From an uncultured Planctomycetia bacterium (GTDB taxonomy: Bacteria; Omnitrophota; Gorgyraeia; Tantalellales; Tantalellaceae), in contig CAYMBK010000031.1 of NCBI GenBank assembly GCA_964388645.1, positions 1 to 25,643 on the forward strand: a DNA stretch of 25,643 nucleotides, written 5' to 3'. The first letter of the stretch is position 1. Every line of letters begins with the position of its first letter. Position numbers and translations under genes: made by a program. The notes beneath the pieces are model-generated. The model made no database searches, was not told the DNA's origin, and saw nothing but the letters and a program-made list of their open reading frames with translations. Of the stretch, positions 1-23,233 are shown piece by piece.

Positions 1-207
1 TATATGGCGCAGAATGTGAATGTCGGCGGAGCGGTAGATACTTATCTTCAGGAAAAGCCGGAAAAGCCTCCCGTACCGCATAAAGTTAGTGTCGGTGAGC
101 CCTCTGGCGAAACGGAGACAACCGTAGATATAGTTCCTGGAACACGTACGGTGCAGGGATCCGGGACAATAAGTGTTAAGCAGACCTATCGGCAGAGTGA
201 TAAATAA
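1..207 (+). CDS. 3' end of a hypothetical protein, probably truncated by the window edge
   Basis: Frame 1 is open from base 1 to TAA at 205-207 and converges on the STT3 operon. No family motif recognised. Confidence 0.4.
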   Translation, partial: YMAQNVNVGGAVDTYLQEKPEKPPVPHKVSVGEPSGETETTVDIVPGTRTVQGSGTISVKQTYRQSDK

Positions 208-255: not shown

Positions 256-357
256 TCAGTCCTCCTTGGAAACCTCGAGCTCCGCCACCGTCTTCGCGAG
301 GAGATCCGAAGCCGCGGGTTCCGCATTGACAAAGCGATCTCTTACAGTAAAGGTCAT
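256..357 (-). CDS. possible 33-aa small protein coupled to the STT3 stop codon
   Basis: ATG at 357-355 overlaps the STT3 TGA (ATGA overlap). It reads MTFTVRDRFVNAEPAASDLLAKTVAELEVSKED* and is not in the supplied ORF track. An alternative ATG lies at 369. Confidence 0.25.
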   Translation of the reverse strand: MTFTVRDRFVNAEPAASDLLAKTVAELEVSKED

Positions 358-2819
358 TCTTCCGGCCATTTTATCCTGTATATCATGATCCTGGTCGCGA
401 GAGTGGGGTTCTCTTCCAGGATGAACGGTTCGAATAATGTCAAGCCTGTGCCGTTAAGGTAGTACAGCCTGAATATGACAGACTTCAGTACATGTGAAGG
501 GGCAACGATGCAGCTTGACCGATTGCCGCTTCGTCTGATGAAAAGAACGGAAAGCTTTATGTCAGGTTTTTCCATTTGTTTTTCCGAAAGGCCACCGCTG
601 ATCGGAAGAATGATACTTTCGGGGGTTCCTGATATTTGTCCTTCCAGGGAACTAATATATGCTGTCATTTTGGACGTATCAAGCGATACGCCGTTACTGA
701 AAAATAATGTCCCGTTATTTTCACGGATCTGAAAACTTTCTTCTCCTATGTAAGGCATGCCTCCTGAAATTCGCCACATCAAAGAGATATAATTTTTTGT
801 TCCGCGCACGAATGATCCGGATACCGGCGGAGGATCCAGATCACCGTTTCGGGCCGCCAGGGCTTTCGAGAAATCCCATTCAGAAACATAGTAGAGCCCC
901 AGTACATTTTTCATGAGGTCATTATAGATCAAGCAAAAAGAGGGAGGGGGAGGTCCGTGCGTGAGCGCTGCCAGTTGAAACGCTTTATCTTTGTCTAGGA
1001 ACTTTTCGGCGAATGAAACGGCTCCGGACTCGTTCCGGACGGCCATCTTTTTGAGCAATTCCACGGCTTCATCTTCGGCGAAACCTTCGGAAACAAGGAA
1101 GTCGAACGCCATGTTACCGCTGGTATTGAGCATGCGCAGTATTCCTGCGGCCTCACTTTCGTTATCACTCATAAAGAAACTCGCTACCCAGTAAGATTGC
1201 GGGACTTCGGGCGTAGCTCCGTCGAAAGTAACGCCGCGTTCGGCGATGGCTCTTATAAAATGCCCCGGAGGCCACCAGGAATTAACTATACTATTCTCCG
1301 GGGACATCGACTTGAGCGTTTTGAGAGCGGAGTCCCAGGTTTCGTTGAATATGGGTTTTATCCTGGAGGAGGAGATATGCGCTAAGACCATCGGCGGGGT
1401 CAGAAGCCCCGAAAATAAAATGGGATATACCGCTGTAAAAATACGGGGCCTTTTTTTAAAAAGCAAGCTAAGCCTTCTTCGCGTGTGGTTGTAGATCGAG
1501 TTGAGCCCGTATGCAAAACACAATGACGCCGGGCCTATGAGAAAGATCACGAATCGCTCGTTTTTTGCCGACATAAAAGCGAAAACCGCCGTAAAAACGC
1601 ATATAGAAGCTTTATATTCAAAAAACGCGTCGGTTCGTTTCCGGGGTAAAACGGAAAAAAACCCGTATATCGCGAAGAAAACGAAAAAAGGGCCTCCGGA
1701 AAGGTGCATTATTTTCAAGGGCGAGGCCCTCTTGAGTTCTCCGATGGTCAGGAAGATATCCGGCCATACATCTATCCGGGCAAGTGAAAATTTACCTGTT
1801 ATACCCAGAACCTCAGAAAGTGAAACTGACAGGCCTGACGGCGTCACTACAAAAGCCGATACTGCCAGGGTCCCCAGAAGGTAGATGGAATATCCGGCAA
1901 AAATATCACGGACGGGTTTTTTTGTGAAGACTCGGAAAAGGTATCCCGCGAAGAATGACAATGAAACAAGGAAGACAAGCAGCAGCCATCCCTGCCAGAA
2001 GACGGAGTAAATACCGTTCAGAAGAGATAAGGCCGCTATCCAAACTATTTTTTTGTTATGGTCGAATGCCTTGGCCATAAGAAAAAGGGCGGCCAGAGGG
2101 AATATGACATTGTAAGGGTCGGTGTCGTACCATCCCGCGCAGCTTCTCTGTATGAAAATGGGAGCCAGGGAAAAGAAAAAACCGCTTATAAGGACGGTCA
2201 TTCCGGGCATTTTTAATTTTTTACAGCACAGGATGAATAAAGCCAGGCATAACAGGTAAAGCACCATAGGAACAACGGACACCGAAAAAATGAGTTCGAT
2301 GTTCTCGTTGAACAGGAGCATGGCCTTGTGCACCAAAAATCCGGTATAGGGATGGATCTCAAAATTCCGCCATCGTCCTATTGGGGCGGTCATGAGAGGG
2401 TCGAAAAACCTTCCTCCCGACATTTTCTCGGCAAGGCGGCCTTTTCGCAGAAGATTTTTAGTGAGACGGTAGTAGTAATATGGATCCGCTCCGAGAAGAT
2501 ACAAGGCGCCGGAAGAAGTGAGATTTTCAGCGAGAACATTGACGGATCCCTCGAGGGCATCTCGGTCGGACCCTATAATGGCCTGAAGACGGACATCTGT
2601 TTTGGTCTTTTTTTCGGCCTCGTTTAAAAGGGGGTAGACGCGGGAAGTTTCCACGGCCAGCTCCTTTCGAAGATTAGCCAGGATGATCATGCGGCTTATC
2701 TTTAGATTGTGCCGCCGTATGTTTTGCGTTGCCGGGTAAGAACGGAAATAAAGCCCGAAAGAGGCGGTGATCGCGAAGATAGCAATAAAGACGGCCGATC
2801 TCTTGAAGTGTTCTGTCAT
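354..2819 (-). CDS. stt3: STT3/AglB/PglB-family oligosaccharyltransferase with a non-canonical WWPPG motif
   Basis: 821 aa polytopic membrane protein with a C-terminal soluble domain. Motifs in the expected order: GADPYY (D112), YDTD (D232/D234), TIGE (E361), ERF, NSWWPPGH (W515-G519), DLMK (D634/K637). Confidence 0.92.
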   Translation of the reverse strand: MTEHFKRSAVFIAIFAITASFGLYFRSYPATQNIRRHNLKISRMIILANLRKELAVETSRVYPLLNEAEKKTKTDVRLQAIIGSDRDALEGSVNVLAENLTSSGALYLLGADPYYYYRLTKNLLRKGRLAEKMSGGRFFDPLMTAPIGRWRNFEIHPYTGFLVHKAMLLFNENIELIFSVSVVPMVLYLLCLALFILCCKKLKMPGMTVLISGFFFSLAPIFIQRSCAGWYDTDPYNVIFPLAALFLMAKAFDHNKKIVWIAALSLLNGIYSVFWQGWLLLVFLVSLSFFAGYLFRVFTKKPVRDIFAGYSIYLLGTLAVSAFVVTPSGLSVSLSEVLGITGKFSLARIDVWPDIFLTIGELKRASPLKIMHLSGGPFFVFFAIYGFFSVLPRKRTDAFFEYKASICVFTAVFAFMSAKNERFVIFLIGPASLCFAYGLNSIYNHTRRRLSLLFKKRPRIFTAVYPILFSGLLTPPMVLAHISSSRIKPIFNETWDSALKTLKSMSPENSIVNSWWPPGHFIRAIAERGVTFDGATPEVPQSYWVASFFMSDNESEAAGILRMLNTSGNMAFDFLVSEGFAEDEAVELLKKMAVRNESGAVSFAEKFLDKDKAFQLAALTHGPPPPSFCLIYNDLMKNVLGLYYVSEWDFSKALAARNGDLDPPPVSGSFVRGTKNYISLMWRISGGMPYIGEESFQIRENNGTLFFSNGVSLDTSKMTAYISSLEGQISGTPESIILPISGGLSEKQMEKPDIKLSVLFIRRSGNRSSCIVAPSHVLKSVIFRLYYLNGTGLTLFEPFILEENPTLATRIMIYRIKWPEE

Positions 2820-2840: not shown

Positions 2841-4103
2841 TTACTCTTGCATGGACTGCATTATTTGCCTGAGAACGAACATTCTTACGTCAGTTACATC
2901 ATCCGGGATAACGTAGTCCGGGGATATGCCGTCAAACCCCAGGAGTGTACCGTCAAAAATAAACGATTGGCCTGTCAAAAGCGCCAGCATAGATCCGTCT
3001 TCGAACCGTATTCCGCTTTTAAGATGGGCGGATCCCGCGGTGTTTTCCTTCCCCATTATCACGGCTCTTTTGTGTGCCTGGAGGGCGCCCGCGAGTATTT
3101 CCGAAGAGCTTCCGCTCTTGCCGTCCACCAGCACTATCATGCGCCCGGTGTACAGAATATCGGAAGCCGGCGTAACAAGGCCCGCTACCGGTTTGTCTCT
3201 CCTGACATAGTAAGATACGCGGGATTCAGGAGGGAGGAACAGCGCCAGTATTTCCCGCACGGCAAGAGGCGGTCCTCCGGGATTGTCTGTAACGTCCAGC
3301 ACTACGTATTCTATGTTCGTAACACCGTGCTGTTCGATGTATGCCTTGAGGTCATTGGCTGTTTCTTTGTTGAATTTATTGATCTTGAAATACGTTACTC
3401 CCGGCAGTCCCGTAGGAAACTCATCAACGGTTTCCGTGAAGAATTCTTTACAAACCAGGGTGTAGGGTTGTAGTCTGCGTTCTTCAATTATGGCTATTAT
3501 CATCTGCACTTCTGTATCCAGGGGGGGGGAAAGCAGTGATTCGATCTCCTGTTGTGAAAGGGTGTTCACCCCGGAGCCATTTATCGCCATTATCGCGTTA
3601 CCCGGGCGTATTCCTTTAGCGTACGCATCGGAACGGGCCTCGACATCGGTTATGACGAATATGTCGCCTGACATGTTGCCGGAAATGCCCAGGCCGTGTT
3701 CATAGCCGTAAACCTTTTTAGCGTACTCTTCGGCTTCTTTAGGCGGGATAAAATTCGTGAACGTATCCTCCGGGTCTTTCAGTTTTTCTACCAGCAGCCC
3801 GGAACCCAGATGGGCAAGCCAGCCGGTGCCGTCCGTCAAGGCCTGGACATCCGAAAGCCGGGTTTTTTTATAGTTTTTAATGAAGTCTTCATAAACTTCC
3901 CGTGAAACGGGCTTGTAGTATTCAGAGTCCATGCGTTCATAGACCATGGCGATAAAGTCGAGGTAAGGTTTCTGCAGGCGGTCAAGTTGTGCGTTAGTCC
4001 CGCCGTTCTGCGCGCATGATGCCAGGGATATAAGGCTCAGCGCCAGAGCCGATGCCCGTAATACATTCCCAAGGAAGACGTTTGTGGTATTGTTCTTATG
4101 CAT
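2841..4103 (-). CDS. S41-family (CtpA-like) C-terminal protease, PDZ domain, lipoprotein
   Basis: Lipobox LASC, PDZ-like GLGI...GIRPGNAIMAING, DVTDNPGG, SGSSSEILAGALQ. Start placed at 4103 because AGGA lies just upstream; the ORF track start at 4121 is the alternative. Confidence 0.88.
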   Translation of the reverse strand: MHKNNTTNVFLGNVLRASALALSLISLASCAQNGGTNAQLDRLQKPYLDFIAMVYERMDSEYYKPVSREVYEDFIKNYKKTRLSDVQALTDGTGWLAHLGSGLLVEKLKDPEDTFTNFIPPKEAEEYAKKVYGYEHGLGISGNMSGDIFVITDVEARSDAYAKGIRPGNAIMAINGSGVNTLSQQEIESLLSPPLDTEVQMIIAIIEERRLQPYTLVCKEFFTETVDEFPTGLPGVTYFKINKFNKETANDLKAYIEQHGVTNIEYVVLDVTDNPGGPPLAVREILALFLPPESRVSYYVRRDKPVAGLVTPASDILYTGRMIVLVDGKSGSSSEILAGALQAHKRAVIMGKENTAGSAHLKSGIRFEDGSMLALLTGQSFIFDGTLLGFDGISPDYVIPDDVTDVRMFVLRQIMQSMQE

Positions 4104-4415
4104 GAAATGCTCCTGTTGCATCTGAGTTTCAGAAAAGAAAAAGCTTAGTTTCTACGGATCGATACTCTGCTTCTATGCAAAAAGCATAGCACCGAGCTCC
4201 TTATTTATCAAGGGTTTTTGTCGCATCCGCTGTTCTTTTAGGATATTCCGGAAAAGTTCCGGACGCGATATATTGTGACACTTTATTGACACCGCCTGGA
4301 TTAAAACATTATTACGGGTTACGGAGCGGGAAGGAGGACGTCATTTCAAACGAAAGGGCATCTTGAAGCGGAAAAATGGGAGAGCCCGGATATTCGGGTA
4401 GTGTGTTCCTCGGAT

Positions 4416-4443: not shown

Positions 4444-4519
4444 TATTTTTCGGGGATACTGACACGGGAAGTCTGAATAAGGAGTGTTTTCGCCTTTTGG
4501 GGGCGGGGTGATATTGGGC

Positions 4520-5713
4520 ATGAAGATAAGAGGTAGTTTTTTTTTGGTTTTTCCGGCGTTATTCCTGGAATTGTCATTGGCAGTGTTTTCCGCGCCCGAT
4601 GCGGCAGCATCTCAGCAGGCTGCGTATCAGCATAATAGCCGAGGCATTGAAAAGCTTCAGTCCGGTGATTATGCCGGGGCCATAGAGGATCTCAGGGCAG
4701 CCCACCGATATCTCCCGGCAAATGAGGACATTAAACGGAATCTGGGGATAGCTTATAACAACTACGCCTTCTATCTAAAAACAAAAGGGGTTTTGCGGGA
4801 AGCCATCATACAGTACAAAAACGCTCTCCAATACGATAGCGACAATCCGTACACATATTATAACCTTGGCCAGGCGTACTATTTAACGCAGGACATGCCC
4901 ATGGCCAGGCACGCTCTGGAAAAAGCTCATAAACTGGATCCCGGACTCGAAGGCCTCGAGGTTTTGCTTGCCAGGGTAAAAGGTGAAGCCACCGCGGAAA
5001 GCGGATTTGACAAGATAGAAACCATGCATTTCATAGTAGCGGCCGACAGGACGGTTCCGAGCGCTAAAATTTCTTATATACGCACACACCTGGAGGAGGC
5101 CTATGGAAGGGTGGGGATGATATTGGATCATTATCCGAGGCAAAAGACAATTGCCGTAATTTTCTCAGAGGATAGCTACGCTCATATGCTTAAAGGTATC
5201 CCTCCTTGGGCGCTTGCCGTATACGACGGCAAAGTCCGTATTCCCGCGGACAGGACCAGATATGGGTCTCGGGACGTCATAAAAATAATATACCATGAGT
5301 ATGCCCATGTAGTGGTGCGGGACATAACCCGGGGGAAATGCCCTGTCTGGCTTAATGAGGGTATAGCGGGCCTTTCGGAAAGCCTGGTAGAACCCCAAAA
5401 AAAGGAAGTTATTCGAAAGTACATAGAAAAATTGGGAGTAGTCCCCTTAAGGCGCATTCCTGAGAGTTTCGCGGATATTAAGCAGCGTGAAGTGATGACG
5501 CTTTTGTACATGCAGTCCTATCTTCTGGCGGAGTTCATTGTGAAAAAAGTGGGATATAGCGGGTTACGCGATATTTTAGATGAACTTGGCAGGGGAACTA
5601 CGATATGGGCCGCCATAAGCGGCGTTTCAGGCCAGAGTATGGCTGATTTTGAGAAAGACTGGGGCAGGGCTCTCGCTTCTGAATACGGGTGGAAGGGTAC
5701 TGTTTCACCATGA
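4520..5713 (+). CDS. exported TPR-repeat zinc metallopeptidase (peptidase MA-like/gluzincin domain)
   Basis: Hydrophobic signal-like N-terminus. TPR helices (AYNNYAFY...A...Y..AL..D; YYNLGQAYY). HEYAH at 5294 followed by PVWLNEGIA. First ATG is at 4520; the ORF track start at 4484 is TTG. Confidence 0.85.
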   Translation: MKIRGSFFLVFPALFLELSLAVFSAPDAAASQQAAYQHNSRGIEKLQSGDYAGAIEDLRAAHRYLPANEDIKRNLGIAYNNYAFYLKTKGVLREAIIQYKNALQYDSDNPYTYYNLGQAYYLTQDMPMARHALEKAHKLDPGLEGLEVLLARVKGEATAESGFDKIETMHFIVAADRTVPSAKISYIRTHLEEAYGRVGMILDHYPRQKTIAVIFSEDSYAHMLKGIPPWALAVYDGKVRIPADRTRYGSRDVIKIIYHEYAHVVVRDITRGKCPVWLNEGIAGLSESLVEPQKKEVIRKYIEKLGVVPLRRIPESFADIKQREVMTLLYMQSYLLAEFIVKKVGYSGLRDILDELGRGTTIWAAISGVSGQSMADFEKDWGRALASEYGWKGTVSP

Positions 5714-5764: not shown

Positions 5765-5857
5765 ATATTCTGCGGCTCTGCTCAAAGTAGGGCAAGGTAG
5801 TTTTTTTGTGGTTTTCAGTGAAGGGATGTATATGTGCGCCAAGGGAAGGGAAGAGGG

Positions 5858-6700
5858 ATGAAGAAAATATTTTTTTTAGTTTTTTTAATATCGGTCCTGC
5901 ATTTTTGCGATGTTGTGGCAGAGCCCGAAAAGGCAACGGTTTTTTCCACTCAGGGAAAAGTAAGCATGATACCCAAAGGAAGCACTTCGTCCATCGAAGC
6001 TTATCCCGGGATGCAGCTTAACGAGGGCGACTGGATAAAGACAGATAAAGCGTCTTCTGTGGCGATATCGTTCAATGAAGAAGACAGCAATGTTGTAAGC
6101 GTAAAGGAAAATACTCTTGTTATACTCAAGCTTGACGGATATTTCAAGATACATCTTCTTTCCGGTGAGATATACGCTTTTTTAGAAAGCGTTGAGAAAG
6201 ATGAGTCTTTCAGAGTGCTCATGCCTTCGGTGGTCACGGAATCAGCAAGCAGCGGGTGGGGAGCTACTACTGACGGCAGTTATACCAATGTTATGGTCTT
6301 TGAAAATCAGGCTTTTATTTGTGGTATCAATATGGACGGTAGTGTCGATGATAAGAAGTTCTGGATAGACGAAGGTTTTCAGCGCAAGACCATAAAGTTC
6401 CAGGACCCCGGTGCGATCAGGCCTGTTCCTAAGGATGTCGCCACATGGTTCAAGGAACAGGTAGTCGCCCATCATCTCGAAAAGTCCCTCTCACGCGATA
6501 TTAAGACAAGCCCCCCGGTGCCTGCTTCCCCGGGAAGAACTGACAATAAAGGGCCCGCTAAAGATGTTGACGCCCAAAAGGAAGAGGACTTTAATGGGTC
6601 AGCCGGGCCGTCCCATCATGCTCCCGGTGTTTTTGTAACGGACGGAGAAGAGATCAATCTCGTGGAGTATCTTTACAGGGAGAGGCTCAGGCAGAGGTAA
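5858..6700 (+). CDS. exported FecR-domain protein
   Basis: Signal peptide MKKIFFLVFLISVLHFCDVVA. FecR-like pattern QGKV...GMQLNEGDWIKT...SSVAISF...SNVVSVKENT. GAGGG RBS before the ATG at 5858. Confidence 0.75.
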   Translation: MKKIFFLVFLISVLHFCDVVAEPEKATVFSTQGKVSMIPKGSTSSIEAYPGMQLNEGDWIKTDKASSVAISFNEEDSNVVSVKENTLVILKLDGYFKIHLLSGEIYAFLESVEKDESFRVLMPSVVTESASSGWGATTDGSYTNVMVFENQAFICGINMDGSVDDKKFWIDEGFQRKTIKFQDPGAIRPVPKDVATWFKEQVVAHHLEKSLSRDIKTSPPVPASPGRTDNKGPAKDVDAQKEEDFNGSAGPSHHAPGVFVTDGEEINLVEYLYRERLRQR

Positions 6701-6718: not shown

Positions 6719-7492
6719 CTAGGGAAGCCATTCTTGCAGCGTCAGGTTCAACGGCCGCCGGATTATCCTGGGGTCATAGAAGTTCTTAACTCCCGCTCTT
6801 GTCCATTTGGTCATTTCATCTTCGATAGCTACCGTGCTGCTCGTTTCAAGCCCCTTTACGGAGGAATCGCTGTACACTATAAGGGTAGGCTCTTTGTAGC
6901 TTAGAAGGCTCTCTACTGTTTCCTTGAATTTTTCGGGGGAAGAAATGATGTGGGCTAGATGCGCGATAACGCATTTGTATTTTTTGCTTTTTCCGGCCCG
7001 CACCATTTCGGCTTCATCCTTGACGGTCTTGGTGTCATAGCCGTGTTTGTCAAAGATCCTGGATATTTTTTCGGTAACATGAGGAGAATCCGTCATAAGC
7101 AAGGCTTTGTTGCGGGTGAGGTCCTTAGCCGCCGAAACAAGATCCTGTTTTTCGACGGGTTTTGCCAGAAATCCATCGGCTCCGCAGGAAAGAAAAGTGT
7201 CAGACATACCGGATCTGCCGGAAACGACAAGAACAGGAAGATTCCGGGTGCTAGAGGCTGATCTCAGAGATTTGAATACGGAAAAACCGTCTAACTTGGG
7301 CAGAATAATGTCGAGTACGACAAGGTCGAATTTGTCTCTTTGCAGGAGCTTTATCGCCGTTTCCCCGTCCTCTGCCGGAATGACCGAAAATCCCCCGCTC
7401 TCAAGCATCGCTTTAGAAACATCCAGAAGATCCGAGTCATCCTCTACTAAAAGCACTCTTTTTGGGGGTTGATCTTTTGCGGGTATGTTCAT
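6719..7492 (-). CDS. response regulator: intact receiver plus degenerate second receiver, no output domain
   Basis: VLLVEDD, LVVLD61IILP, VVSG and LAKP conserved in domain 1. Domain 2 has the same layout with His178 at the phosphoacceptor position. Confidence 0.87.
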   Translation of the reverse strand: MNIPAKDQPPKRVLLVEDDSDLLDVSKAMLESGGFSVIPAEDGETAIKLLQRDKFDLVVLDIILPKLDGFSVFKSLRSASSTRNLPVLVVSGRSGMSDTFLSCGADGFLAKPVEKQDLVSAAKDLTRNKALLMTDSPHVTEKISRIFDKHGYDTKTVKDEAEMVRAGKSKKYKCVIAHLAHIISSPEKFKETVESLLSYKEPTLIVYSDSSVKGLETSSTVAIEDEMTKWTRAGVKNFYDPRIIRRPLNLTLQEWLP

Positions 7493-9382: not shown

Positions 9383-12300
9383 ATGGTGAGATATTTTTTG
9401 GTGAATTACAGGGCATGTGTTAGGGCCATTGCTATCTGCGTTGCCGTGAGCTTTTTCTGCCAGAACGTCGTTTTGGCCGCGGGTACGGATATTCCGATGC
9501 CGGGCAATCTTCTTCCTTCTTCCGGGTTCAATTTCATAACGGGAACATCCGTTCCCGGTGAGTTCGAAGTGACGGCTTTTCTGAAATACTTGCAACATCG
9601 GATAGGGGTGTTACGGAAAAAATATCCGAAACGGTTTTTAACGCCCGAACTCATCAGGGATCTTCTGTCCGAACAATTCACTCAGGGTATTCCGGGATTT
9701 GACCCTCAAAAAATGTACCCACAGGGCAACGAACTGGTCATGCCCCTTTGGGATCGTGAGATACGCATATCCCTGCCCGATGGACGAACAAGGATCGATG
9801 GCGAGAGCGAACTGACCGTCTCGGAAGCGTCCCCGGCGAAAGACGAGCACGTCATGCGCAGCGGTCCTGGAAGCGGCCCGGACCACTTTAGGGGGGAGCC
9901 AAAGGATCGTGGTCCCCGAGAACGAATAAGGATGTACACCCATTTTACGGATGATCAGCTTATTGAAGAGATCGTAAAGACAAGGGATGAGTTTCTTGCC
10001 CGGAAAGACGAAGAGGGCTACTCACGAGAGACAGGCAAGACCCCGAATTTTAACCTTGCCGCGTTGAAAAAAACCAATCTCCGTCTTTACGACTATCTGC
10101 TCAACCACGACAAGAAGAATCTACTGCACCAGATACCATTTTTGCCGGGCAAGGAAGATCTCGAGACGGATATCGGCGGCGGTATGGAAGATCTCCCCGC
10201 CACATCTTCGGGCGCGGAGTGGTCTGCCTCTTTTGTCGAAGAAATATTTGACGGTGGATTTCTGACAGCAACAGAAAAAACGATCTTAACGCTTTTTTTC
10301 GGTCTGGGCGGGCAATGGTCAGCAAAAGCCCCGGTAATAGCCCGTGAACTCAACCTTACACGACAACGGATAGATCAGCTCAGAGAAAAGGCAATTGACA
10401 AGATAAGAAGGTGGATCGCCACGAGAGATCTGGCCATTTTCGGGTTTTCGCCGGGCGAAGCGGCTTGGATATTGTCCTTTTATCCGACCATGGATGGATT
10501 CGCTCAAAGAATATCCCGCGTGAGGAGGATGCTCAGGGTTTCTGATGATGCCGCTTCGTCTTTTACCCCGGAAGAAAGGAAAAACCTGGCCAGATCCGTT
10601 TTGGAAGAACCGTGGCCACCGGAGGCGAGGTCGTCTGAAAGAACGCGAAGGCCGAACGGCAGGGGCAGGTCCGCTTCCGCGCGTATCACGCCACTCGTCG
10701 CGATAACGGGCATCGCTATCGGCGCGGCTATCTTCCTGCCGGCGATATCCGCCGCCGCGCGAGGGCTTTATCATTATCTTGCATCCTCAGGTATCTCCGG
10801 GTTTTTGCCCGGAGGAGGTGAAGTGACGCTCATTTTAGGGTTGCCTCTTCTTGGATCCGTTTTTTCCGCGCGGGGCCCAGGCAACGAAGCGAGAAAAATT
10901 GAAGAGGCTCTGTCCGCCGTGCGCGATATGACCGCGGGGAGGGACGAATATGATCCCGCGGAAGGACGCAATCCAAAAGAACGGAAGATACTGGAGGTGT
11001 ACGGCGAGCTTCAGAGAGAGAAAGGAACCGGCTATGTACCTGATCTCACAGAATTGGCCGAACGGGCGGAGATCGGCACATCGACACTTAAGTCCCGTTT
11101 GTTCAGGATGAACCTGGACAGGAACGACAGGTATCTGAAAGCTCTTGTCTACAGAGGATCTGACCTTCCTCAAGTTGGAGGCAAAAGGGGTTACGCTTCA
11201 CTGGGCTGGATGGGAGAGGATCTGGGCTTTGTCTATTCTCCGTTCCTGCATGCCCCTGTACTTGAAGAACTTTTCAAGGTCGGTATACCGCTCGCTATTT
11301 TTAATATCCTGAGCTTTATTACTCCGGAACTGCCGGCTCTTAATCTTTCCGTTTTTGTATCCACGTCTGTGATCTTGGCTTTTGTTTTTCTTGCCGCGCA
11401 CCTTCTGAACGAGGATGGGCCTTACAGCGTAGACAGGCCGTTCTCCCTGGCGTCCGCGCAAATAAGAGCCGTGTTTTTACGGCACCCTCTCATGGCCGCT
11501 AAAAAAGTACATAAGACATGGCATTACATAAAAGTGACGAGGGGTACCCATTATCTGGCTTTCAACATCCTTGCGGCGCCGGCCTACTCGGCGGCATTCG
11601 GAATTTTGCTGTCACTGCCTTTTGTGGTGTTTCTGGGGCCTTCGGTTTTCAATATCATTCCGTTATTCCTGAGCATGCTTCTGCACTATTTTCAGAACCG
11701 CCGCATAAAAATGATAAACGAAAAAGAGAGGAGGACGATAAGGTATGCCTCTCTCCCGGGATGGGTTAAAATGGTCTTTCCTCATGGTAAAGAAGCGATC
11801 AGGACGATCTTCTCGAAAAATACAACATTCGGAACAACCGCTCATCCGCGCAGTCCTCAAAGGCTTGCCCGGTGGTCACCTTTTGAGGACGGAGTTCCGA
11901 TGGCATCGGATAGTTCCAGCCCCGACGGTATAAGGCCGCTTGGTGGCCCGGAAGAAGAAGCCGCGCGCGCCGCGTCCGGGAAAAAGCGATCTCTGGAAGA
12001 GTTGATCGCATCAGGCGATATCGCGAAGGGGACTTCGGAATACGTGTCTCCCGCGACAGCCAGGCAGACAATGGAAAAAGCGGGACAAGTACTCACGCGG
12101 GAAGAGGAACAAACTCTTTTTCGGGCACTTCATTCCGCGTGGAGGCCTGAGGACAAGCCGGTCAAACGCGCTGTTGTAGATATGATCGTCATGAAAAACC
12201 AGGGTTTGGTGTGGTCGGCCGTCAGAAAATTTGTGTATACCGAAGACAAGAATGTCATAGCCGATGCCGTTCAGGACGGGAACCTGGGTCTTCTGGAAGC

Positions 12301-15300
12301 CATACTGCGTTTCGGTTATGAGTTCAATCATAAGTTCTCGACTTACGCCTCGCACTGGATAAAAAAGTACATCAAGGAAGGATCGAAAATCATTACCGAA
12401 AGCATCCATATCCCGAGAAAGGAGGTGGAGAGATCGGACCGCTTGAAAAAATTTGTGGTATCGTTGCAAAATACGCTGGGCAGAGTTCCATGCGTCGATG
12501 AAATAGCGGAAAAGGCCGGCCTGGCAGTTAGTGAAGTTGTACGGCTTTTAGGAGTAAGGGCCATTCAGCCCGATTCTCTGTATGTGCCTGTAAAAAAGAC
12601 GCTGGGGTCGGGGAAGAAAACAGTTCACCTCGGAGACCTGATCGCCGGTTCCGGCGGTGTTCACTATCAGGAAGATATTTCAAGCAAAGAGGTACTTTCG
12701 TATCTTTTTGCCAGTCTGACATTCACACAGCGCGTTGTTGTCAAGATGAGAAACGGCATAGGCACAGTGAGGGACAAGAGGTACTCAGTTCGAGAGATAG
12801 GGAGCCTGATCGGCTGTAGCGGCGCGAATGTACACCTTATTGAAAAGGAGGCCCTAAGAGTTTTAGGTAGAGCTGTCTCCAGGAAGAAGGACAGCGAGGT
12901 CACGACCGAAGGGGTCGATAATACCGATGTTCATATTGCCGAGATATTACAGATCAGCCCTCTGAAACAAGGAGATCTCTTCGAGAAAGAGTTCCGGCGT
13001 ATCAGAGAGGAAAGGTTAAAGGATGAGAGGGCATCGGACGGAACAGATGACAGCGGGCTCACACTGGAGGAAGAGACACAAGCCCTTTCTTCCGTAAGCC
13101 ATGATCCTAAACGTCCGGTCAGCGTAAGAGGAACAATAGCGCGGGTGTTCGGAAAGGACGTGAAGCCGGGCGTTGTGGACATAGGTTCGCTGCACGGATC
13201 GTTCGTGAAGGATTTTCTGGACATGCACGGAGATGTGGTCGGCGAGATGATAGGGATAGACACGGTATACGACAGGAGCAGGATAACTGCCGATATTGCC
13301 GACGCCATGCATGAGGAAGGGATCTGGTCTGAATATGAACGTGCCTACTACGCCGGGGAAGAAAGCCCCCTTATGAGCGTGGACGAGGTAATGGGGGACC
13401 CGTCCAGAAAAGGAACTTTCGGCGTGGCCACCATTAACAAACCGCCGGGCGGAATGGATGATTTTAAGGCTATGGTAGATGAAGCCGTTTATTTGGGAGC
13501 GCGCCTGATATTTCTCGACGCTAACGCTCGAGATATTCAGGAAGAGGGTTTGGAATATCTTCGGAGCCTGGGATATGACATTGTTGAGATGCCTGGCAAG
13601 CCCGAAGATTACCCCGCCACGGAGCAGATGAGAGTGGTTGTGAGAGAAAGGTTCTTTGTTTGCGAAAGAAAGGTAGAGCCCGAGGAAATAAACCCCGAAG
13701 AGGTCCGCGTTGAGGGTCTGCCCGTAGTGTGGTCCGGCGGCAAAGACGGCTCCGGACGAGGGGTGGCCGGCGTCCAGATCGATGTGGGAAGTATTTCCGG
13801 GAATACCGTGAGAATGGCCGGCATTGTCGAAGCTTTGGCCAGTCTGGGGCGGAAAGCCCCCGGGCTTGTAATATTCCCGGAACAGATAGACGAAGACTAC
13901 ATGAGCTGGACGGATGAGATCGCGGGAAAAAGGAGAGAGATACTCAGACAGAAGGCCATAGCCACAGGTATAGCCATAGGTTACGGTATTGAGCATTTGC
14001 CCGGAGGGGACTATGAGAGAGGGAGTGTTTTCTACGAGATAGTAAAGCCCGTGGGATTGGGATCGGAACTGACCCGGTTCAGAAAATATGACTACGTGAA
14101 GGAGAACCGCCTGGTCGAGATAAACGGTACAAAGATCGCCGTTCTTATATGCGGAGAGGCCGAAGCCCTGCTGGCGCCGCGGTCGCGCGGCATCAGAACA
14201 GACAGTGATATCAGCCGGGCTGACCTGCTCATTGTCCCGTCCACAACGGATATGTGGTCCGCGAAGTTCTGGCCTGGCGCTTTGTTCGAAAAATACGGTG
14301 TTCCGGCAGCTTTTATCAACCGGGCCGACATAACGAACGCGGGCAACCCCTGGCACGACGGGTTTACGCCTTCACGATACCGGGAACCGCCTGATGAGGC
14401 AACTATTTTGAGCGCCGGAGAACAGATAATGATTTTAGCCCCCGGGTGTGTTTCGGACAATGTAACGGGAGATAAGGAAGCTATGGCCTCGGATCGGAGC
14501 GAACGCGAGGCGATAGAACGCGTTTCCTGCGCGCTGCGCAGCGTCCAACACAGCGGTTTAAGCGCCTTTGATATTGACGGTATGGCACACAGAGCGGTAA
14601 GCGCCATGGCCGAGGTGATCCTCTCGACGGAAAAGGACTTTCCGGTAATGTCAGGGAGGATGAAGGATCTTGCCGACGGCCTCGTGGAACGATCAAAGGC
14701 CTTTCGAGTAGAAAGAACAAGTTTTGACTCCGCTTCCGAAGACGGAGCATTGACCGCGGAGGCCGCCGAAGGATATGCCAGGGCGATAGCCGAATATGGA
14801 CAGGCCGTGCGGGATATCAGGACTGAGGCGGAAAAGCTTGTCTCGGATCCCGTAGAGCGGACCTATCCCGGTATCGAAGGGATAATGGGTTTATACCGAG
14901 AAGTATGGAAGGAGATGGATCGTCTTTCAGAAGCGGTCAAAAGCCGTTCTGAGCTTGCTTCCGGTACGGGGTCTACGGATCTGATCCCCGTATCTGAGGT
15001 GATCCGCCTGGTTGTAAGTGGAAGGCCGTACGTTACGATGGAGAACGAACTCGCGCCGGACGTCCTGCTCGAGGGTAACCGTTTGTCGTTTGCCGGAGCC
15101 GTGGCGAACATCGTCGACAATGCGGTGTTCTTTGCCGCGAAACGGCGGACAAACGACGGGACCCCGGCCTTTGTCACGATCACCCTGGCCGAGGAAAAAG
15201 GGAATATCAGGATAGATATAACCGATACAGGCGGAGGGATCTCACATGATCTGCTAGTAGCGGATTATGTAATGCAAAGGCCGAGATTTTTCAACCTTGA

Positions 15301-17737
15301 TGTTTCGCGCAGGGAAGGGGGAACGGGCCTTGGTGCCACCGAGGCCTGGTACGCCGTAAAGGATATGGAAGGCAGTATCAACGTCAGTTCCGCGCCCGGC
15401 GAGGGCACTACTTTCACTATCGGCGTGCCGATCGCCACGTCTATTCCGACCGAGGTTAAGGCGAAGTTCCATAAACCCGGCGGGCCGGGCCTGCCGCAAC
15501 TGGCGAAACTTCCGCCCGAGGCTGAAGCGACGTTCCGCAATTCCGGTGACACAATACCTGATTCGACGAAAGAGATAAGTAATGTGTTCCCGGAACTTCC
15601 AACACCCGATGCGGCAAGGGGTTCGGATGAAGTGAAACGTTCTCGTAGTACGATAGAGGATCTAAAACCGGAACGGACCGTGCGGATTTTAGATATAGGG
15701 AGCGGTACCGGTGCGGAGAGTCGCTGGGGGAGTGGTGCGTCGCATAGAGAAATCAAAGAGGTCGTCCGGAGAAGAACGGCAAAAGACGACGAAGAAGTAA
15801 GAGTTGAGCTTATTGGAATAGATAAAGACGCTGAAGAAGTTCGTCGAGGGAAAGCCCTTGGCTTTGATATCAGGGAGATGGACGCGCGAAAAAGCACCGG
15901 TTTCAAGGAAAAAAGTTTTGACCTTATAACCCGTTATAACCCTTCCACTACAAAAGATATCTTAGATATTCTGCCGGAAGTAAAAAGAGTTTTAAAGCCG
16001 GAAGGTGAATTTTGGGTTGCTCCCTGGCTTGAGGACTATGACGAATTTCTGAATGTATGGAGGAGGGATCCGAAATACCTACAGCACTATGTGGATGCGT
16101 TGGAGGCGAATGGTTTTTCAGCGGAAGTCATAGAAGAACATCGGCCTGATATGCCACCCGTACTTATTGTCGCCAGGCTGATACCGCACGTCCCGCTCGA
16201 GGTTCGCGCGAAAGCCCGGCGCGAAGGCGGTTTGCGCCTCGCAAAAATACCGCCCGAAGGAGATCAGGCATTCGAGCAGGAACAGGCAAAAGCGGTGATG
16301 ACGGAAGGCGCAAAGCCGCTTTTGCGCGATATCAAGACACAAAACAGAGGCGAGATCTATCCTCAATGCACCGCTTATTCGCATATAACCGCGGAGAAAT
16401 TCAGACAAATGGTCGAATGCTTGGCAGGCGGAAAAATAGGCGATGAAGAAGAAAAAGAGCTGGTAAGATTTGACAAAGTTTTAGAAGAACTGGAGCTTGT
16501 CAGGCAAAGGCTTAATGGAGGGCATTACAACAGATTATATCACTCGGTATCATGTTTCGAAGCCTCGAAAGAGACGATCGATGTCCTCAGCAGGAACGGT
16601 TTTTCATCCGTGCAATTGATAAGACGAAAATTCATCGACGACAAAATACCAAGCAAAATTTTCGGACCGGCCAGTGCCTTTTTGTACGGGTCATGGATAG
16701 ACGATGATGGGGATACGTATGCTCATTCATACGTGGTCGCCAGGATCGCCGGGGAGTACTTCGTAATAGACCTGTCGGCCGGACAGTTCCTGACGGAACA
16801 GTTATGGGACTACAAAGACCTCGGAATATTCATTGTTCCGATAAAAGACCTTGATGAGCATTCCTGGCCTTACGCGATGGGCGATGTGTTCCTCAACGAT
16901 AAAGAAGAGGCTCTAGAGCTTGTTAGCGGAGATGAGAAAGCTCTCGAAGCCATTATGAACCCACGGGGAACGGTGCCTGAGGGTGTTATGAGCTACGCGG
17001 CGGAATATTCAAATGAGCGGAATAACACTCCCGGGACACGGGTGCCGGACGATACGGATACCGAGGGCATGGCAGACCATGCCGCGCAGGATGATCCGGT
17101 AACGGAAACGCTTTCGTTGCCTCCTGCGTCGCGGGAACAGCCCGAGATGGAACTTATAAAGGAGCTTATACTAACAAGCGAGATCATCGCATCGGCTTCG
17201 CTCACGGGCGAACCGGTCATAGTGGGTATCGATACTAGCTGGGTGCCGGCCGAGCAGAGAGCTCTCGATTCTTTCGGGGCCATGCTAAGACAGCTCAAGG
17301 GTCTGCCGGCGAAGCTGGGAGCTCACCACATAACCATCTTGACGGCAAGCGATCCGGAGGTCCTGAGCGGGGAAATAGACCGGGTCATCAAAAAAAGAGA
17401 CAAGACTGTGAAAATGTCTAACATACTCCTCATAGGCCAGTTCGACGGTATAGACGGGTCAAAGAACACATCTTATGACAGGTTCAAGACGTCTCCGGAA
17501 GGCGAGAGCGCGTGTTTCGCGCATATTGTTGTTCCTGCGGTCAGTGCCGGAAAACATTATGACGTGGACATGCAGAGTATTCTCAGGCTGGCGCTCGCCG
17601 AACACAGGGCCATTCACCGGCAGGGAGGCAAGAGGTTTTTTTATCTGAATTTACCCGGTGCCGGACAGGACGGGTTAACTGTCAAAGAGCTTCATGATCG
17701 CCATAGAGCCAGGAACTATGCTCTAAAAATGGCCTAA
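9383..17737 (+). CDS. giant 2784-aa multidomain membrane-associated protein (sigma70, MTase, nitrilase-fold, HATPase and transglutaminase-like modules)
   Basis: 8355-nt uninterrupted ORF with GGAGGAG RBS. Signal-like N-terminus (RAIAICVAVSFFCQNVVLA-AG), hydrophobic TM block, and the domain motifs listed as separate features. Confidence 0.95.
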   Translation: MVRYFLVNYRACVRAIAICVAVSFFCQNVVLAAGTDIPMPGNLLPSSGFNFITGTSVPGEFEVTAFLKYLQHRIGVLRKKYPKRFLTPELIRDLLSEQFTQGIPGFDPQKMYPQGNELVMPLWDREIRISLPDGRTRIDGESELTVSEASPAKDEHVMRSGPGSGPDHFRGEPKDRGPRERIRMYTHFTDDQLIEEIVKTRDEFLARKDEEGYSRETGKTPNFNLAALKKTNLRLYDYLLNHDKKNLLHQIPFLPGKEDLETDIGGGMEDLPATSSGAEWSASFVEEIFDGGFLTATEKTILTLFFGLGGQWSAKAPVIARELNLTRQRIDQLREKAIDKIRRWIATRDLAIFGFSPGEAAWILSFYPTMDGFAQRISRVRRMLRVSDDAASSFTPEERKNLARSVLEEPWPPEARSSERTRRPNGRGRSASARITPLVAITGIAIGAAIFLPAISAAARGLYHYLASSGISGFLPGGGEVTLILGLPLLGSVFSARGPGNEARKIEEALSAVRDMTAGRDEYDPAEGRNPKERKILEVYGELQREKGTGYVPDLTELAERAEIGTSTLKSRLFRMNLDRNDRYLKALVYRGSDLPQVGGKRGYASLGWMGEDLGFVYSPFLHAPVLEELFKVGIPLAIFNILSFITPELPALNLSVFVSTSVILAFVFLAAHLLNEDGPYSVDRPFSLASAQIRAVFLRHPLMAAKKVHKTWHYIKVTRGTHYLAFNILAAPAYSAAFGILLSLPFVVFLGPSVFNIIPLFLSMLLHYFQNRRIKMINEKERRTIRYASLPGWVKMVFPHGKEAIRTIFSKNTTFGTTAHPRSPQRLARWSPFEDGVPMASDSSSPDGIRPLGGPEEEAARAASGKKRSLEELIASGDIAKGTSEYVSPATARQTMEKAGQVLTREEEQTLFRALHSAWRPEDKPVKRAVVDMIVMKNQGLVWSAVRKFVYTEDKNVIADAVQDGNLGLLEAILRFGYEFNHKFSTYASHWIKKYIKEGSKIITESIHIPRKEVERSDRLKKFVVSLQNTLGRVPCVDEIAEKAGLAVSEVVRLLGVRAIQPDSLYVPVKKTLGSGKKTVHLGDLIAGSGGVHYQEDISSKEVLSYLFASLTFTQRVVVKMRNGIGTVRDKRYSVREIGSLIGCSGANVHLIEKEALRVLGRAVSRKKDSEVTTEGVDNTDVHIAEILQISPLKQGDLFEKEFRRIREERLKDERASDGTDDSGLTLEEETQALSSVSHDPKRPVSVRGTIARVFGKDVKPGVVDIGSLHGSFVKDFLDMHGDVVGEMIGIDTVYDRSRITADIADAMHEEGIWSEYERAYYAGEESPLMSVDEVMGDPSRKGTFGVATINKPPGGMDDFKAMVDEAVYLGARLIFLDANARDIQEEGLEYLRSLGYDIVEMPGKPEDYPATEQMRVVVRERFFVCERKVEPEEINPEEVRVEGLPVVWSGGKDGSGRGVAGVQIDVGSISGNTVRMAGIVEALASLGRKAPGLVIFPEQIDEDYMSWTDEIAGKRREILRQKAIATGIAIGYGIEHLPGGDYERGSVFYEIVKPVGLGSELTRFRKYDYVKENRLVEINGTKIAVLICGEAEALLAPRSRGIRTDSDISRADLLIVPSTTDMWSAKFWPGALFEKYGVPAAFINRADITNAGNPWHDGFTPSRYREPPDEATILSAGEQIMILAPGCVSDNVTGDKEAMASDRSEREAIERVSCALRSVQHSGLSAFDIDGMAHRAVSAMAEVILSTEKDFPVMSGRMKDLADGLVERSKAFRVERTSFDSASEDGALTAEAAEGYARAIAEYGQAVRDIRTEAEKLVSDPVERTYPGIEGIMGLYREVWKEMDRLSEAVKSRSELASGTGSTDLIPVSEVIRLVVSGRPYVTMENELAPDVLLEGNRLSFAGAVANIVDNAVFFAAKRRTNDGTPAFVTITLAEEKGNIRIDITDTGGGISHDLLVADYVMQRPRFFNLDVSRREGGTGLGATEAWYAVKDMEGSINVSSAPGEGTTFTIGVPIATSIPTEVKAKFHKPGGPGLPQLAKLPPEAEATFRNSGDTIPDSTKEISNVFPELPTPDAARGSDEVKRSRSTIEDLKPERTVRILDIGSGTGAESRWGSGASHREIKEVVRRRTAKDDEEVRVELIGIDKDAEEVRRGKALGFDIREMDARKSTGFKEKSFDLITRYNPSTTKDILDILPEVKRVLKPEGEFWVAPWLEDYDEFLNVWRRDPKYLQHYVDALEANGFSAEVIEEHRPDMPPVLIVARLIPHVPLEVRAKARREGGLRLAKIPPEGDQAFEQEQAKAVMTEGAKPLLRDIKTQNRGEIYPQCTAYSHITAEKFRQMVECLAGGKIGDEEEKELVRFDKVLEELELVRQRLNGGHYNRLYHSVSCFEASKETIDVLSRNGFSSVQLIRRKFIDDKIPSKIFGPASAFLYGSWIDDDGDTYAHSYVVARIAGEYFVIDLSAGQFLTEQLWDYKDLGIFIVPIKDLDEHSWPYAMGDVFLNDKEEALELVSGDEKALEAIMNPRGTVPEGVMSYAAEYSNERNNTPGTRVPDDTDTEGMADHAAQDDPVTETLSLPPASREQPEMELIKELILTSEIIASASLTGEPVIVGIDTSWVPAEQRALDSFGAMLRQLKGLPAKLGAHHITILTASDPEVLSGEIDRVIKKRDKTVKMSNILLIGQFDGIDGSKNTSYDRFKTSPEGESACFAHIVVPAVSAGKHYDVDMQSILRLALAEHRAIHRQGGKRFFYLNLPGAGQDGLTVKELHDRHRARNYALKMA
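10262..10410 (+). other. domain in giant protein: isolated sigma70 region 4 HTH
   Basis: LTATEKTILTLFFGL...IARELNLTRQRIDQLREKAIDKIR matches the L..RE..VL.LRFGL...EIG..L.LTRERVRQI...AL.KLR pattern. Confidence 0.8.
12050..12870 (+). other. domain in giant protein: RpoD/RpoS-like sigma70 core (regions 1.2, 2, 3, 4)
   Basis: LTREEEQTL (1.2); KNQGLVWSAVRKF...DAVQDGNLGLLEAILRF...KFSTYASHWIKKYI (2); IHIP...LGRVPCVDEIAEKAG (3); LTFTQRVVVKMRNGI...YSVREIGSLIG...IEKEALRVL (4). Confidence 0.9.
13150..13640 (+). other. domain in giant protein: divergent class I SAM-methyltransferase-like fold
   Basis: VVDIGSLHG (motif I variant), MIGID (motif II), later GTFGVATINKP. Confidence 0.5.
13763..14440 (+). other. 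domain in giant protein: nitrilase/carbon-nitrogen hydrolase fold
   Basis: VAGVQ...LVIFPE1500...FRK1568Y...GTKIAVLIC1590GE...ADLLIVPS; the E-K-C triad is present. Confidence 0.8.
14483..15430 (+). other. domain in giant protein: histidine-kinase-like helical region plus HATPase_c
   Basis: N box ANIVDNA, G1 DTGGGI, F box RFF, G2 GTGLG, terminal GSINVSSAPGEGTTFTI. Possible H-box GMAH at 14579-14590. Confidence 0.85.
15680..16175 (+). other. domain in giant protein: class I SAM-dependent methyltransferase
   Basis: VRILDIGSGTG, LIGID, EMDAR...FKEKSFDLIT, LPEVKRVLKPEG. Confidence 0.88.
16500..16900 (+). other. domain in giant protein: transglutaminase/papain-like Cys-His-Asp domain
   Basis: SC2391FEAS..TIDVLSRNG, AH2448SYVV, VID2463LSAGQF, with the order and spacing typical of this fold. 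Confidence 0.6.
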
Positions 17738-18104: not shown

Positions 18105-19397
18105 ATGATAAAGAGATATTCCAGGCCCGGGATGGCTTGCATATGGGACGAGGAGAACAGATTCCGGAAGATGCTGGATGTGGAGATACTGGCCTGCGAA
18201 GCCTTCGCGGAACTCGGCATAATCCCCAAAGAAGCGGCGAAAACGATAAGAGAAAAAGCTTCTTTCAGCGTCGAGAGGATAAATGAGATAGAAAAGGTCA
18301 CCAATCACGATGTGGTGGCGTTCATTAAGAGCGTGTCGGAGAACGTAGGGGAAGATGCCCGATATTTTCATTACGGCCTCACTTCAAGCGATGTTCTTGA
18401 TACCGCGCTGTCTATACAGATGGTGGAGGCGGCCGATCTTTTGATAGAGGGTATAGAAAAACTTATGAAAGCTCTCAAGGAGAAGGCGATAGAACATAAA
18501 AAGACACCCATGATGGGACGTTCTCACGGGGTGCACGCGGAACCTATATCTTTTGGGCTTAAGATGGCCCTTTATTACAGAGAAATGGGCAGGAACCTTG
18601 ACCGCATGAAAAAGGCCAGGGAAACTGTGGCCGTAGGGAAAATATCCGGTTCAGTAGGCACCTTCGCCAACGTAGATCCCGGCGTAGAGGAATATGTCTG
18701 CAAGAAACTGGGTTTTGAGCCGGCTGGTGTCGCCAATCAGGTGATACAAAGGGACCGGCACGCTTATTATCTCAACGTTGTAGCGCTGACCGGGGCGACT
18801 CTGGAAAAAATAGCTCTTGAAGTAAGAGGTCTTCAGAAAACCGAAATAAACGAAGTACAGGAATATTTCTCAAAAGGGCAGACCGGTTCTTCGAGCATGC
18901 CGCACAAGAAAAACCCCATAATATGCGAGAGGATAACAGGACTTGCCCGGGTGTTGCGCGGTAACGCTACGGCGGCAATTGAGAATGTGGCTCTTTGGCA
19001 CGAGAGGGATATATCACATTCTTCGGTTGAAAGGGTGATATTGCCGGATTCCACCATTCTGCTTGATTATATGCTTGGCAAGTCGGAGGATCTTGTGTCT
19101 AACCTCATAGTTAACAAGGAGAATATGCTGAGGAATATGCAGGTTTCTAAAGGGCTTGTTTATTCCCAGCATATAATGCTTGAACTGATAAAAAAGGGCG
19201 CGACGAGGCTGGAGGCTTACGATCTTATTCAGGGAGCGGCTCTTGAATGTCACTCCGGAGATAAAGATTTCAAAGACCTTGTCATGAATGATAAGGGAGT
19301 TAGAAGTTATCTAAGTGAAAAAGAAATAAGCGATTGCTTCAGCCTGGATTACCATTTAAGGCACGTCGACAGAATATTCAAGAACATAGGCCTTTGA
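18105..19397 (+). CDS. purB: adenylosuccinate lyase
   Basis: MIKRYS start, HDVVAF, HYGLTSSD, GRSHGVHAEP, signature GSSSMPHKKNPI. Confidence 0.97.
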   Translation: MIKRYSRPGMACIWDEENRFRKMLDVEILACEAFAELGIIPKEAAKTIREKASFSVERINEIEKVTNHDVVAFIKSVSENVGEDARYFHYGLTSSDVLDTALSIQMVEAADLLIEGIEKLMKALKEKAIEHKKTPMMGRSHGVHAEPISFGLKMALYYREMGRNLDRMKKARETVAVGKISGSVGTFANVDPGVEEYVCKKLGFEPAGVANQVIQRDRHAYYLNVVALTGATLEKIALEVRGLQKTEINEVQEYFSKGQTGSSSMPHKKNPIICERITGLARVLRGNATAAIENVALWHERDISHSSVERVILPDSTILLDYMLGKSEDLVSNLIVNKENMLRNMQVSKGLVYSQHIMLELIKKGATRLEAYDLIQGAALECHSGDKDFKDLVMNDKGVRSYLSEKEISDCFSLDYHLRHVDRIFKNIGL

Positions 19398-19461
19398 CGC
19401 GGGTAACGCGCAAGAAAAGGGCAGTGGTTAAACGAACTTTCCCGCGGAATTCGAGAAGATA

Positions 19462-21779: not shown

Positions 21780-21795
21780 AGGAGGTAGATAGAAT

Positions 21796-23203: not shown

Positions 23204-23233
23204 ATAGCATGGGCAAAAATATCGGGAGAAGAC

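Follow-up and report, generated by a model that had tools for sequence, protein, structure and literature searches.

The window analysed in this study is a stretch of 25,643 nucleotides (contig CAYMBK010000031.1) from an uncultured Omnitrophota bacterium, and it carries a minus-strand gene for an 821-amino-acid protein of the STT3/AglB/PglB oligosaccharyltransferase (OST) lineage. We found that this protein represents a clade in which the catalytic residues of the OSTs are kept and the pocket for the +2 residue of the acceptor is rebuilt: the place of the WWD Asp is taken by a small residue that is not conserved, with an invariant Pro after it, and a new conserved Tyr (Y632) is present. It is documented that WWD, together with the DK or MI motif, binds the +2 Ser/Thr in OSTs, and the N-x-S/T sequon read in this way is treated as common to the three domains of life (PMC8342417, PMC7226087). 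From sequence comparison and gene order, we suggest with a probability of roughly 0.55 that the Omnitrophota enzyme glycosylates a peptide acceptor without the hydroxyl clamp, in association with an exported protease, on a secretion- or pilus-like machine.

The gene is an uninterrupted open reading frame (ORF), and its product is a single-subunit membrane glycosyltransferase (CAZy GT66, GT-C fold). The Pfam STT3 model (PF02516) matches residues 104-365 of the protein (1.4e-24, 87.8 bits against a cut-off of 24.5), and the Pfam models of the STT3/PglB/AglB core domain give weak matches around the WW motif. The AlphaFold2 model, for which a family alignment of 140 full-length members (lowest identity 26%; all counts out of 140 below refer to it) was used as input, reached a predicted local distance difference test score (pLDDT) of 95.3 and a predicted template modelling score (pTM) of 0.93. 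It consists of a membrane part of several helices and, at the C-terminus, an alpha/beta domain, which by analogy with PglB should face the periplasm. The best Foldseek match in the Protein Data Bank (PDB) was full-length C. lari PglB (5ogl/6gxc/3rce; E 2e-19, target TM score 0.68-0.71), with human STT3A, A. fulgidus AglB and yeast Stt3 among the further top matches. The top ones were all full-length OSTs, and the other GT-C enzymes DPY19, AftA, ArnT and ALG9/12 followed far below. The protein did not reach the cut-off of the NCBIfam PglB model NF050801 (35 bits against 1300) or that of the archaeosortase-linked STT3 model TIGR04154 (51 bits against 450). The members of this family are currently annotated just as 'STT3 domain-containing protein'. 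The features of the gene are as follows.

354-2819, minus strand: STT3/AglB/PglB-like GT-C glycosyltransferase gene (P0001)
2484-2486, minus strand: D112, catalytic Asp of the first loop (PglB D56, STT3A D49)
2118-2126, minus strand: D232-T-D234, DxD metal-binding motif (PglB D154, D156), within R225-S-x-x-G-W-Y-D-T-D
1737-1748, minus strand: T358-I-G-E361, TIXE motif of external loop 5 (PglB E319)
1554-1556, minus strand: R422, putative phosphate-binding Arg (PglB R375)
1263-1277, minus strand: W515-W516-P517-P518-G519, in the place of canonical WWDYG (plus strand CCCCGGAGGCCACCA; reverse complement TGG TGG CCT CCG GGG)
1212-1223, minus strand: D533-G534-A-T536, in the place of the DGGK/DNxT motif
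894-920, minus strand: helix D634-L635-M-K637-N638-V-L-G-L642, in which DLMK is residues 634-637 (920-909) and the DK/MI-equivalent positions in correct register are L635, N638 and L642

The acceptor motif and the catalytic residues

A reading of the DNA made from its letters and translations (hereafter the sequence-only reading) had placed WWPPG at the WWDxG position of OSTs, and our alignments agree with this. phmmer comparisons with solved structures placed S-W-W-P-P-G-H-F-I on the P. furiosus AglB stretch S-W-W-D-Y-G-Y-W-I and on the C. jejuni PglB stretch T-W-W-D-Y-G-Y-P-V. The family profile alignment also set WWPPG column for column on WWDYG of human STT3A and A. fulgidus AglB, so WWPPG does occupy the WWDxG position.

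The motif is not a peculiarity of one contig. Two database searches collected 215 relatives, and 203 of them, nearly all labelled Omnitrophota, carry WW[P/S/C/A/T]PG, divided into WWPPG (149), WWSPG (30), WWCPG (13), WWAPG (8) and WWTPG (3). Residue 517 is therefore P, S, C, A or T, and Asp was found there in 0/203 clade members and 0/140 aligned members. The surroundings of WW-x-P-G, that is G-H-F-I...R...D-G, are kept across the clade, and an exhaustive search at E<=1e-30 returned 703 cluster representatives. A sequencing error or a pseudogene was ruled out by this clade-wide conservation and by the intact ORF. Moreover, positions 1096-1398 showed zero differences in contigs of two DNA runs that belong to separate studies, an aquatic metagenome and a freshwater sediment metagenome, one of which is possibly the source sample; the DLMK codons (905-1093) lie outside this matched span. 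No RNA run containing the stretch was found among the sequencing runs listed.

The catalytic set, which the sequence-only reading had described as intact at D112, D232-T-D234 and TIGE361, is present and conserved across the alignment. D112, R225, W230, D234, W275, P353, E361, R422, W495, W515, W516, P518, G519, R528 and W544 are invariant (140/140), and D232 is found in 137/140. D112 is aligned to D49 of human STT3A and is invariant also in the sister clade of DPANN archaea described below, and the profile alignment pairs R225-S-x-x-G-W-Y-D-T-D with RSVAGSYDNE of human STT3A. The TIXE region has the consensus W-P-D-x-F-L-T-V-G-E-L, and the T-T-V-A-E of the sister clade, which is aligned with T-I-G-E361, pairs with TIME of C. 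lari PglB. In the same way, R422 lies in the context E-R-F, and the G-V-R-F of the sister clade aligned with this region pairs with G-L-R-F of PglB. The catalytic residues of the Omnitrophota and DPANN clades are identical. Downstream of the WW pair, at a distance equal to that of DGGK in PglB, the clade has D (201/203), G (202/203), then A or G and then T or S, with no Lys. Thus, the residues that handle the metal, the lipid phosphate and the amide of the acceptor Asn in solved OSTs are kept as D112, D232/D234, E361 and R422.

These data bear on whether the protein could be an STT3 relic without catalysis that acts as a scaffold or receptor, since a residue essential in PglB and yeast Stt3 is missing. 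We consider this very improbable: across 140 sequences, with identities as low as 26%, the residues for the metal, the phosphate and amide activation do not vary, and this argues strongly against it. The ORFs are also intact in nearly all genomes that have them, and the confident model has the OST fold.

It was reported that the single changes D459V, Y460N/C and G461D abolish the activity of C. jejuni PglB (PMC3527161), so the canonical binding mode is unlikely for an enzyme with WWPPG. Since single changes in WWDYG inactivate PglB, yet the WWPPG enzymes keep their catalytic residues, the acceptor is very likely bound differently.

The DK/MI helix and the sister clade

Among proteins that keep WWD, the nearest are STT3 homologues from DPANN archaea, which their sources call Nanoarchaeia, Nanoarchaeota or Woesearchaeota, and WWDFG makes up 122 of 127 motif matches in this DPANN-like set. 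They are the closest relatives outside the clade (e.g. HLD79068.1 and MBI1969218.1; 23-25% identity over ~95% of the length, E 1e-57 to 1e-61), and hhalign of the two clades gave a probability of 100 and an E-value of 2e-128 over 818 columns. Both clades have an extended N-terminal loop, a G-I-L-R-M-L-N helix, an inserted helical bundle, T-H-[GC]..P-P and W-D-F. In a maximum-likelihood tree of 74 sequences, 45 Omnitrophota sequences formed one clade (Shimodaira-Hasegawa-like approximate likelihood ratio test, SH-aLRT, 99), and 27 DPANN-like sequences were sister to it (SH-aLRT 98); this tree came from a quick search, was rooted on just two WWDYG sequences and had its Omnitrophota rows chosen by motif, and it does not fix the direction of transfer between DPANN and Omnitrophota. 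As the Omnitrophota clade is monophyletic and sister to a WWDFG-bearing clade, we conclude that a single loss of the Asp took place at its base. In most of the sister-clade DPANN proteins (P0239, P0250, P0255 and others), STT3 is joined in one chain with a peptidyl-prolyl isomerase domain of the PpiC/parvulin type (PF00639, PF13145, PF13616), which suggests that glycosylation is coupled there to the folding of exported proteins.

The second part of the +2 pocket is the DK/MI helix. The published DK motif is D-x-x-K-x-x-x-M (PMC8342417), and its bacterial counterpart, the MI motif, is M568-x-x-I571-x-x-x-V575 (PMC3527161); both therefore have the spacing i, i+3, i+7. In the DPANN clade, D711-M712-x-x-K715-x-x-x-W719-x-H721-F722-G723 is invariant, and its M712, K715 and W719 fit this spacing. 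Using hhalign and a joint MAFFT alignment that is gap-free from T-H-G to W-D-F, D711 was paired with D634, M712 with L635, K715 with N638 and W719 with L642. The register was taken from the sister clade and the published spacing. MAFFT of two canonical DK-motif sequences (P0100, P0101) directly against the clade misplaces the DK region, because the helical insert is missing from both. In the AlphaFold2 model, a strand (627-632) is followed by a broken helix (633-637/639-646).

The sequence-only reading had seen in DLMK an archaeal/eukaryal-type DK motif. The letters are present, but K637 stands one residue out of register against the homologous Lys of the sister clade and is shared by 11/140 members. 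Column 637 is mostly E (80) or D (34), then K (11) and R (5), and column 638 is Q (36), K (35) or N (34) with average variability. The Lys is characteristic of the subclade to which the query belongs, and position 637 is K, R, T, N or Q there and in other subclades. If D634-x-x-K637 is taken literally, the i+7 residue is Gly.

We then ranked the columns by entropy separately inside each clade. The DK/MI helix columns are in the most conserved 5-9% in DPANN, whereas the aligned Omnitrophota columns lie at 22-53%. The DK/MI helix of the Omnitrophota clade has neither the conserved Lys nor the conserved aromatic residues of its sister. The two clades also have the following fixed differences.

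Position 360: G in Omnitrophota, A in DPANN
Position 518: P in Omnitrophota, F in DPANN
Position 521: F in Omnitrophota, W in DPANN
Position 522: I in Omnitrophota, F in DPANN
Position 632: Y in Omnitrophota (96% conserved), S in DPANN (invariant)

Because the helix is invariant in one clade and variable in the other, we conclude that the whole +2 pocket was rebuilt and not the Asp alone. The proposal that loss of the Asp changes or relaxes sequon recognition is thereby strengthened, and its DK part falls away.

The same columns are where a different explanation has to be weighed, namely that the enzyme is still a canonical N-x-S/T OST in which the two Trp and a recruited residue, Y632 or an E/D at 637, replace the lost Asp toward the +2 hydroxyl. 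W515 and W516 are invariant and the neighbourhood of the motif is kept, position 637 is E or D in 114/140, and Y632 is strongly conserved against the invariant Ser of the sister clade. However, the occurrence of K, R, T, N or Q at 637 in the query's subclade and in others means that there is no conserved carboxylate, and the entire DK/MI helix is relaxed. In addition, single substitutions of the Asp or Tyr in WWDYG abolish PglB activity, and the pseudopilins of the 80 loci described below have no sequon excess. We regard this explanation as unlikely.

Gene neighbourhood and proposed function

We fetched 80 loci from species-representative genomes, nearly all labelled Omnitrophota, some of them under automated 'uncultured Planctomycetia' labels. 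In the window, the enzyme gene is flanked by the following two genes.

2841-4121, minus strand: S41 C-terminal-processing peptidase with a PDZ domain and a lipoprotein signal/lipobox LISLASC (Pfam S41, 3e-30), co-directional, upstream, 21 nucleotides from the STT3 start
1-207, plus strand: exported tetratricopeptide repeat (TPR) protein, 3' end of a convergent gene, the last of an operon resembling those of type II secretion systems and type IV pili (T2SS/T4P); bases 1-204 encode the C-terminus, and the contig ends there

Across 74 related loci, the immediately upstream co-directional gene encodes a protease in 58; 44 of these proteases are S1 trypsin-like and 14 are S41 peptidases, so two unrelated serine proteases occupy one slot. 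The TPR fragment of the window matches the C-terminal end of the TPR protein that a relative (L002) has in the corresponding position (46% identity, E 3e-15), and the remainder of the operon was found on the contigs C197 and C178 of the same genome. In other loci, the operon downstream of STT3 is usually convergent and encodes, in this order, the exported TPR protein, PilO, a PilM-PilN fusion, GspK, two pseudopilins, GspG, GspF and GspE with a PilZ domain. At least three T2SS/T4P genes lie within 8 kb of STT3 in 53/80 loci. Seven loci have a co-directional operon with STT3 inside, and GspK and the S41 peptidase come downstream of STT3.

Beside STT3 in those seven loci there is a divergent pair of genes for a small family 2 glycosyltransferase (GT2, 235 amino acids) and a DUF2304 membrane protein, for example at L077:6781-7921 and L050:6910-7969 (both minus strand), and at least one of the seven, L050, has a second GT2 downstream (10874-11914, plus strand). 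All these genes are candidates for making a polyprenyl-phosphate sugar donor.

The family was detected in 109/301 genomes of an even sample of the phylum, in 87/247 high-quality genomes and in 3/17 sampled genomes of the window's own taxonomic family, so its distribution in Omnitrophota is widespread yet patchy. The source genome (1.41 Mb, 76% complete) has one STT3 gene. Some Omnitrophota genomes (G060, G104, G138, G239, G194 and others) have two to four family matches, with tandem copies on one contig in G060 (C68); some may be paralogues and some split genes.

Our results suggest the following mechanism. A polyprenyl-phosphate-linked glycan would serve as the donor, and the enzyme would pass it to a peptide held along the TIxE loop (T-I-G-E), most likely onto Asn. 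The transfer would proceed without the canonical +2 hydroxyl clamp, so that the +2 rule would be relaxed or different. The enzyme would belong to an accessory module with the exported serine protease, and its targets, judging from gene order, would be proteins of the T2SS/T4P-like machine or proteins exported by it. That the STT3-protease pair is an accessory module is suggested by two genomes, G271 (same genus, 96% complete) and G073 (same family), which have the operon without the pair.

Several observations weigh against this proposal. W515 and W516, the Trp pair that also makes hydrogen bonds to the +2 hydroxyl, are kept, and some preference for Ser/Thr could survive. STT3 and the operon are for the most part convergent and not co-transcribed. 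The PilM-PilN profile matches 279/301 genomes compared with the 109/301 that have STT3, and the operon is present in G271 and G073 without the TPR/STT3/protease tail, so the link between STT3 and the secretion machine is one of synteny only. We also compared N-x-S/T counts with 300 shuffles in the neighbour proteins of the 80 loci, and the pseudopilins and GspK beside STT3 showed no excess (ratios 0.82-1.24, z below 2). When every N-x-Z pattern was counted, N-x-P and N-x-N were in excess in the pseudopilins, which gives no interpretable signal and probably reflects conserved family motifs.

An apparent N-x-S/T excess of 1.87x was obtained for the cytoplasmic GspE, which shows that such counts are inflated by conserved homologous positions. 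No conserved Asn motif was found in the terminal TPR protein. Co-loss of STT3 and the secretion operon in a same-genus genome was considered and ruled out, as G271 and G073 carry the operon without STT3. At their loci (L088, G271:C9:20000-39999; L089, G073:C50), the order GspE-GspF-GspG-pseudopilin-GspK-PilMN-PilO is retained, and PilO is succeeded by unrelated large ORFs, which in G271 have 1023 and 857 amino acids.

The lack of a sequon signal in the neighbours would also fit a non-protein acceptor. This could be water, in which case the enzyme would be a lipid-linked-oligosaccharide hydrolase that frees periplasmic glycans, or it could be a lipid or a cell-envelope polymer. In canonical OSTs without a bound peptide, the donor is hydrolysed, and mutations of the DK motif modulate that activity (PMC8342417); in the Omnitrophota clade, the peptide-reading pocket is degraded and the donor and metal sites are invariant. 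On the other hand, E361 and the T-[VI]-G-E loop, which in solved OSTs pairs with the acceptor backbone and activates the Asn amide, are invariant. WW-x-P-G and its surroundings are strongly constrained, which is unexpected for an abandoned pocket, and the constant presence of an exported-protease gene beside that of the enzyme speaks for a protein substrate. We judge a non-protein acceptor to be quite unlikely and prefer transfer to a peptide without the hydroxyl clamp.

A wider proposal can be put forward more tentatively: the clade, present in about a third of the sampled Omnitrophota genomes, may be an archaeal-type (DPANN-related) N-OST turned into a non-sequon protein glycosylation enzyme, which works with an exported serine protease on T2SS/T4P-like components or cargo. 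If true, it would be the first case in nature of an STT3-family enzyme that follows another acceptor code. A literature search found no published description of WWPPG or of an Omnitrophota STT3. An Omnitrophota survey (PMC10066038) and a preprint on giant genes of the phylum (bioRxiv 10.1101/2023.11.21.568195) make no mention of STT3, and Lombard 2016 mentions for bacteria only 'a few bacterial homologues'. A large natural clade with catalysis kept and the pocket rewritten offers a way to ask how the acceptor choice of OSTs is encoded and how it evolves, and it may supply glyco-engineering enzymes with new site rules. It also suggests that an envelope modification, so far unstudied, exists in this phylum, which is widespread, uncultured and in part predatory or symbiotic, and that genes have been exchanged between DPANN archaea and Omnitrophota.

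Further genes of the window are listed below. The first three stand in the same order in L002, a 62%-identical relative, and giant genes such as the one at 9383-17737 are known in Omnitrophota (bioRxiv 10.1101/2023.11.21.568195).

4484-5713, plus strand: TPR protein with a Peptidase_MA_2 domain, upstream of the S41 gene
5834-6700, plus strand: FecR-like protein, upstream of the S41 gene
6719-7492, minus strand: response regulator
9383-17737, plus strand: single ORF of 2784 amino acids with an unusual combination of domains, namely sigma-70 regions 2 and 4, a histidine-kinase-type ATPase and an S-adenosylmethionine (SAM) methyltransferase, mostly without Pfam match
18105-25457, plus strand: housekeeping run of purB, purM, purD, purE, low-molecular-weight phosphotyrosine phosphatase, RpiB, serine hydroxymethyltransferase, dCMP/cytidine deaminase and NrdR

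Comparison with known systems

The DPANN relatives differ from the Omnitrophota enzyme in keeping WWDFG and the invariant D-M-x-x-K-x-x-x-W helix; they are archaeal and uncharacterised. Archaeal AglB (A. fulgidus AglB-L, 3waj/5gmy/7e9s; P. furiosus C-terminal domain, 2zag) is likewise a single-subunit GT66 enzyme with the catalytic Asp, the DxD-type motif, TIXE and the Arg in common, and its WW..G aligns. However, in AglB the Ser/Thr pocket is formed by WWDYG together with a DK or MI motif (PMC8342417), whereas the Omnitrophota enzyme has other residues in place of the Asp and Tyr, and its helix lacks conservation.

Campylobacter PglB (3rce, 5ogl, 6gxc) is the best structural match and is likewise bacterial, single-subunit and periplasm-facing. 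It shares ~13% identity and differs in having WWDYG, an M-x-x-I-x-x-x-V motif, a need for D/E at position -2 and a dedicated pgl cluster for glycan synthesis.

Pilin glycosylation enzymes such as PilO/TfpO, the PglL O-oligosaccharyltransferases and TfpW are encoded beside pilin genes, and archaeal AglB acts on archaellins and pilins. The PilO and PglL family is Wzy_C, which is distinct from STT3. These systems are alike in placing a lipid-linked-glycan transferase beside type IV filament genes, but for the Omnitrophota enzyme this link is one of gene order, and the machine also occurs without the enzyme.

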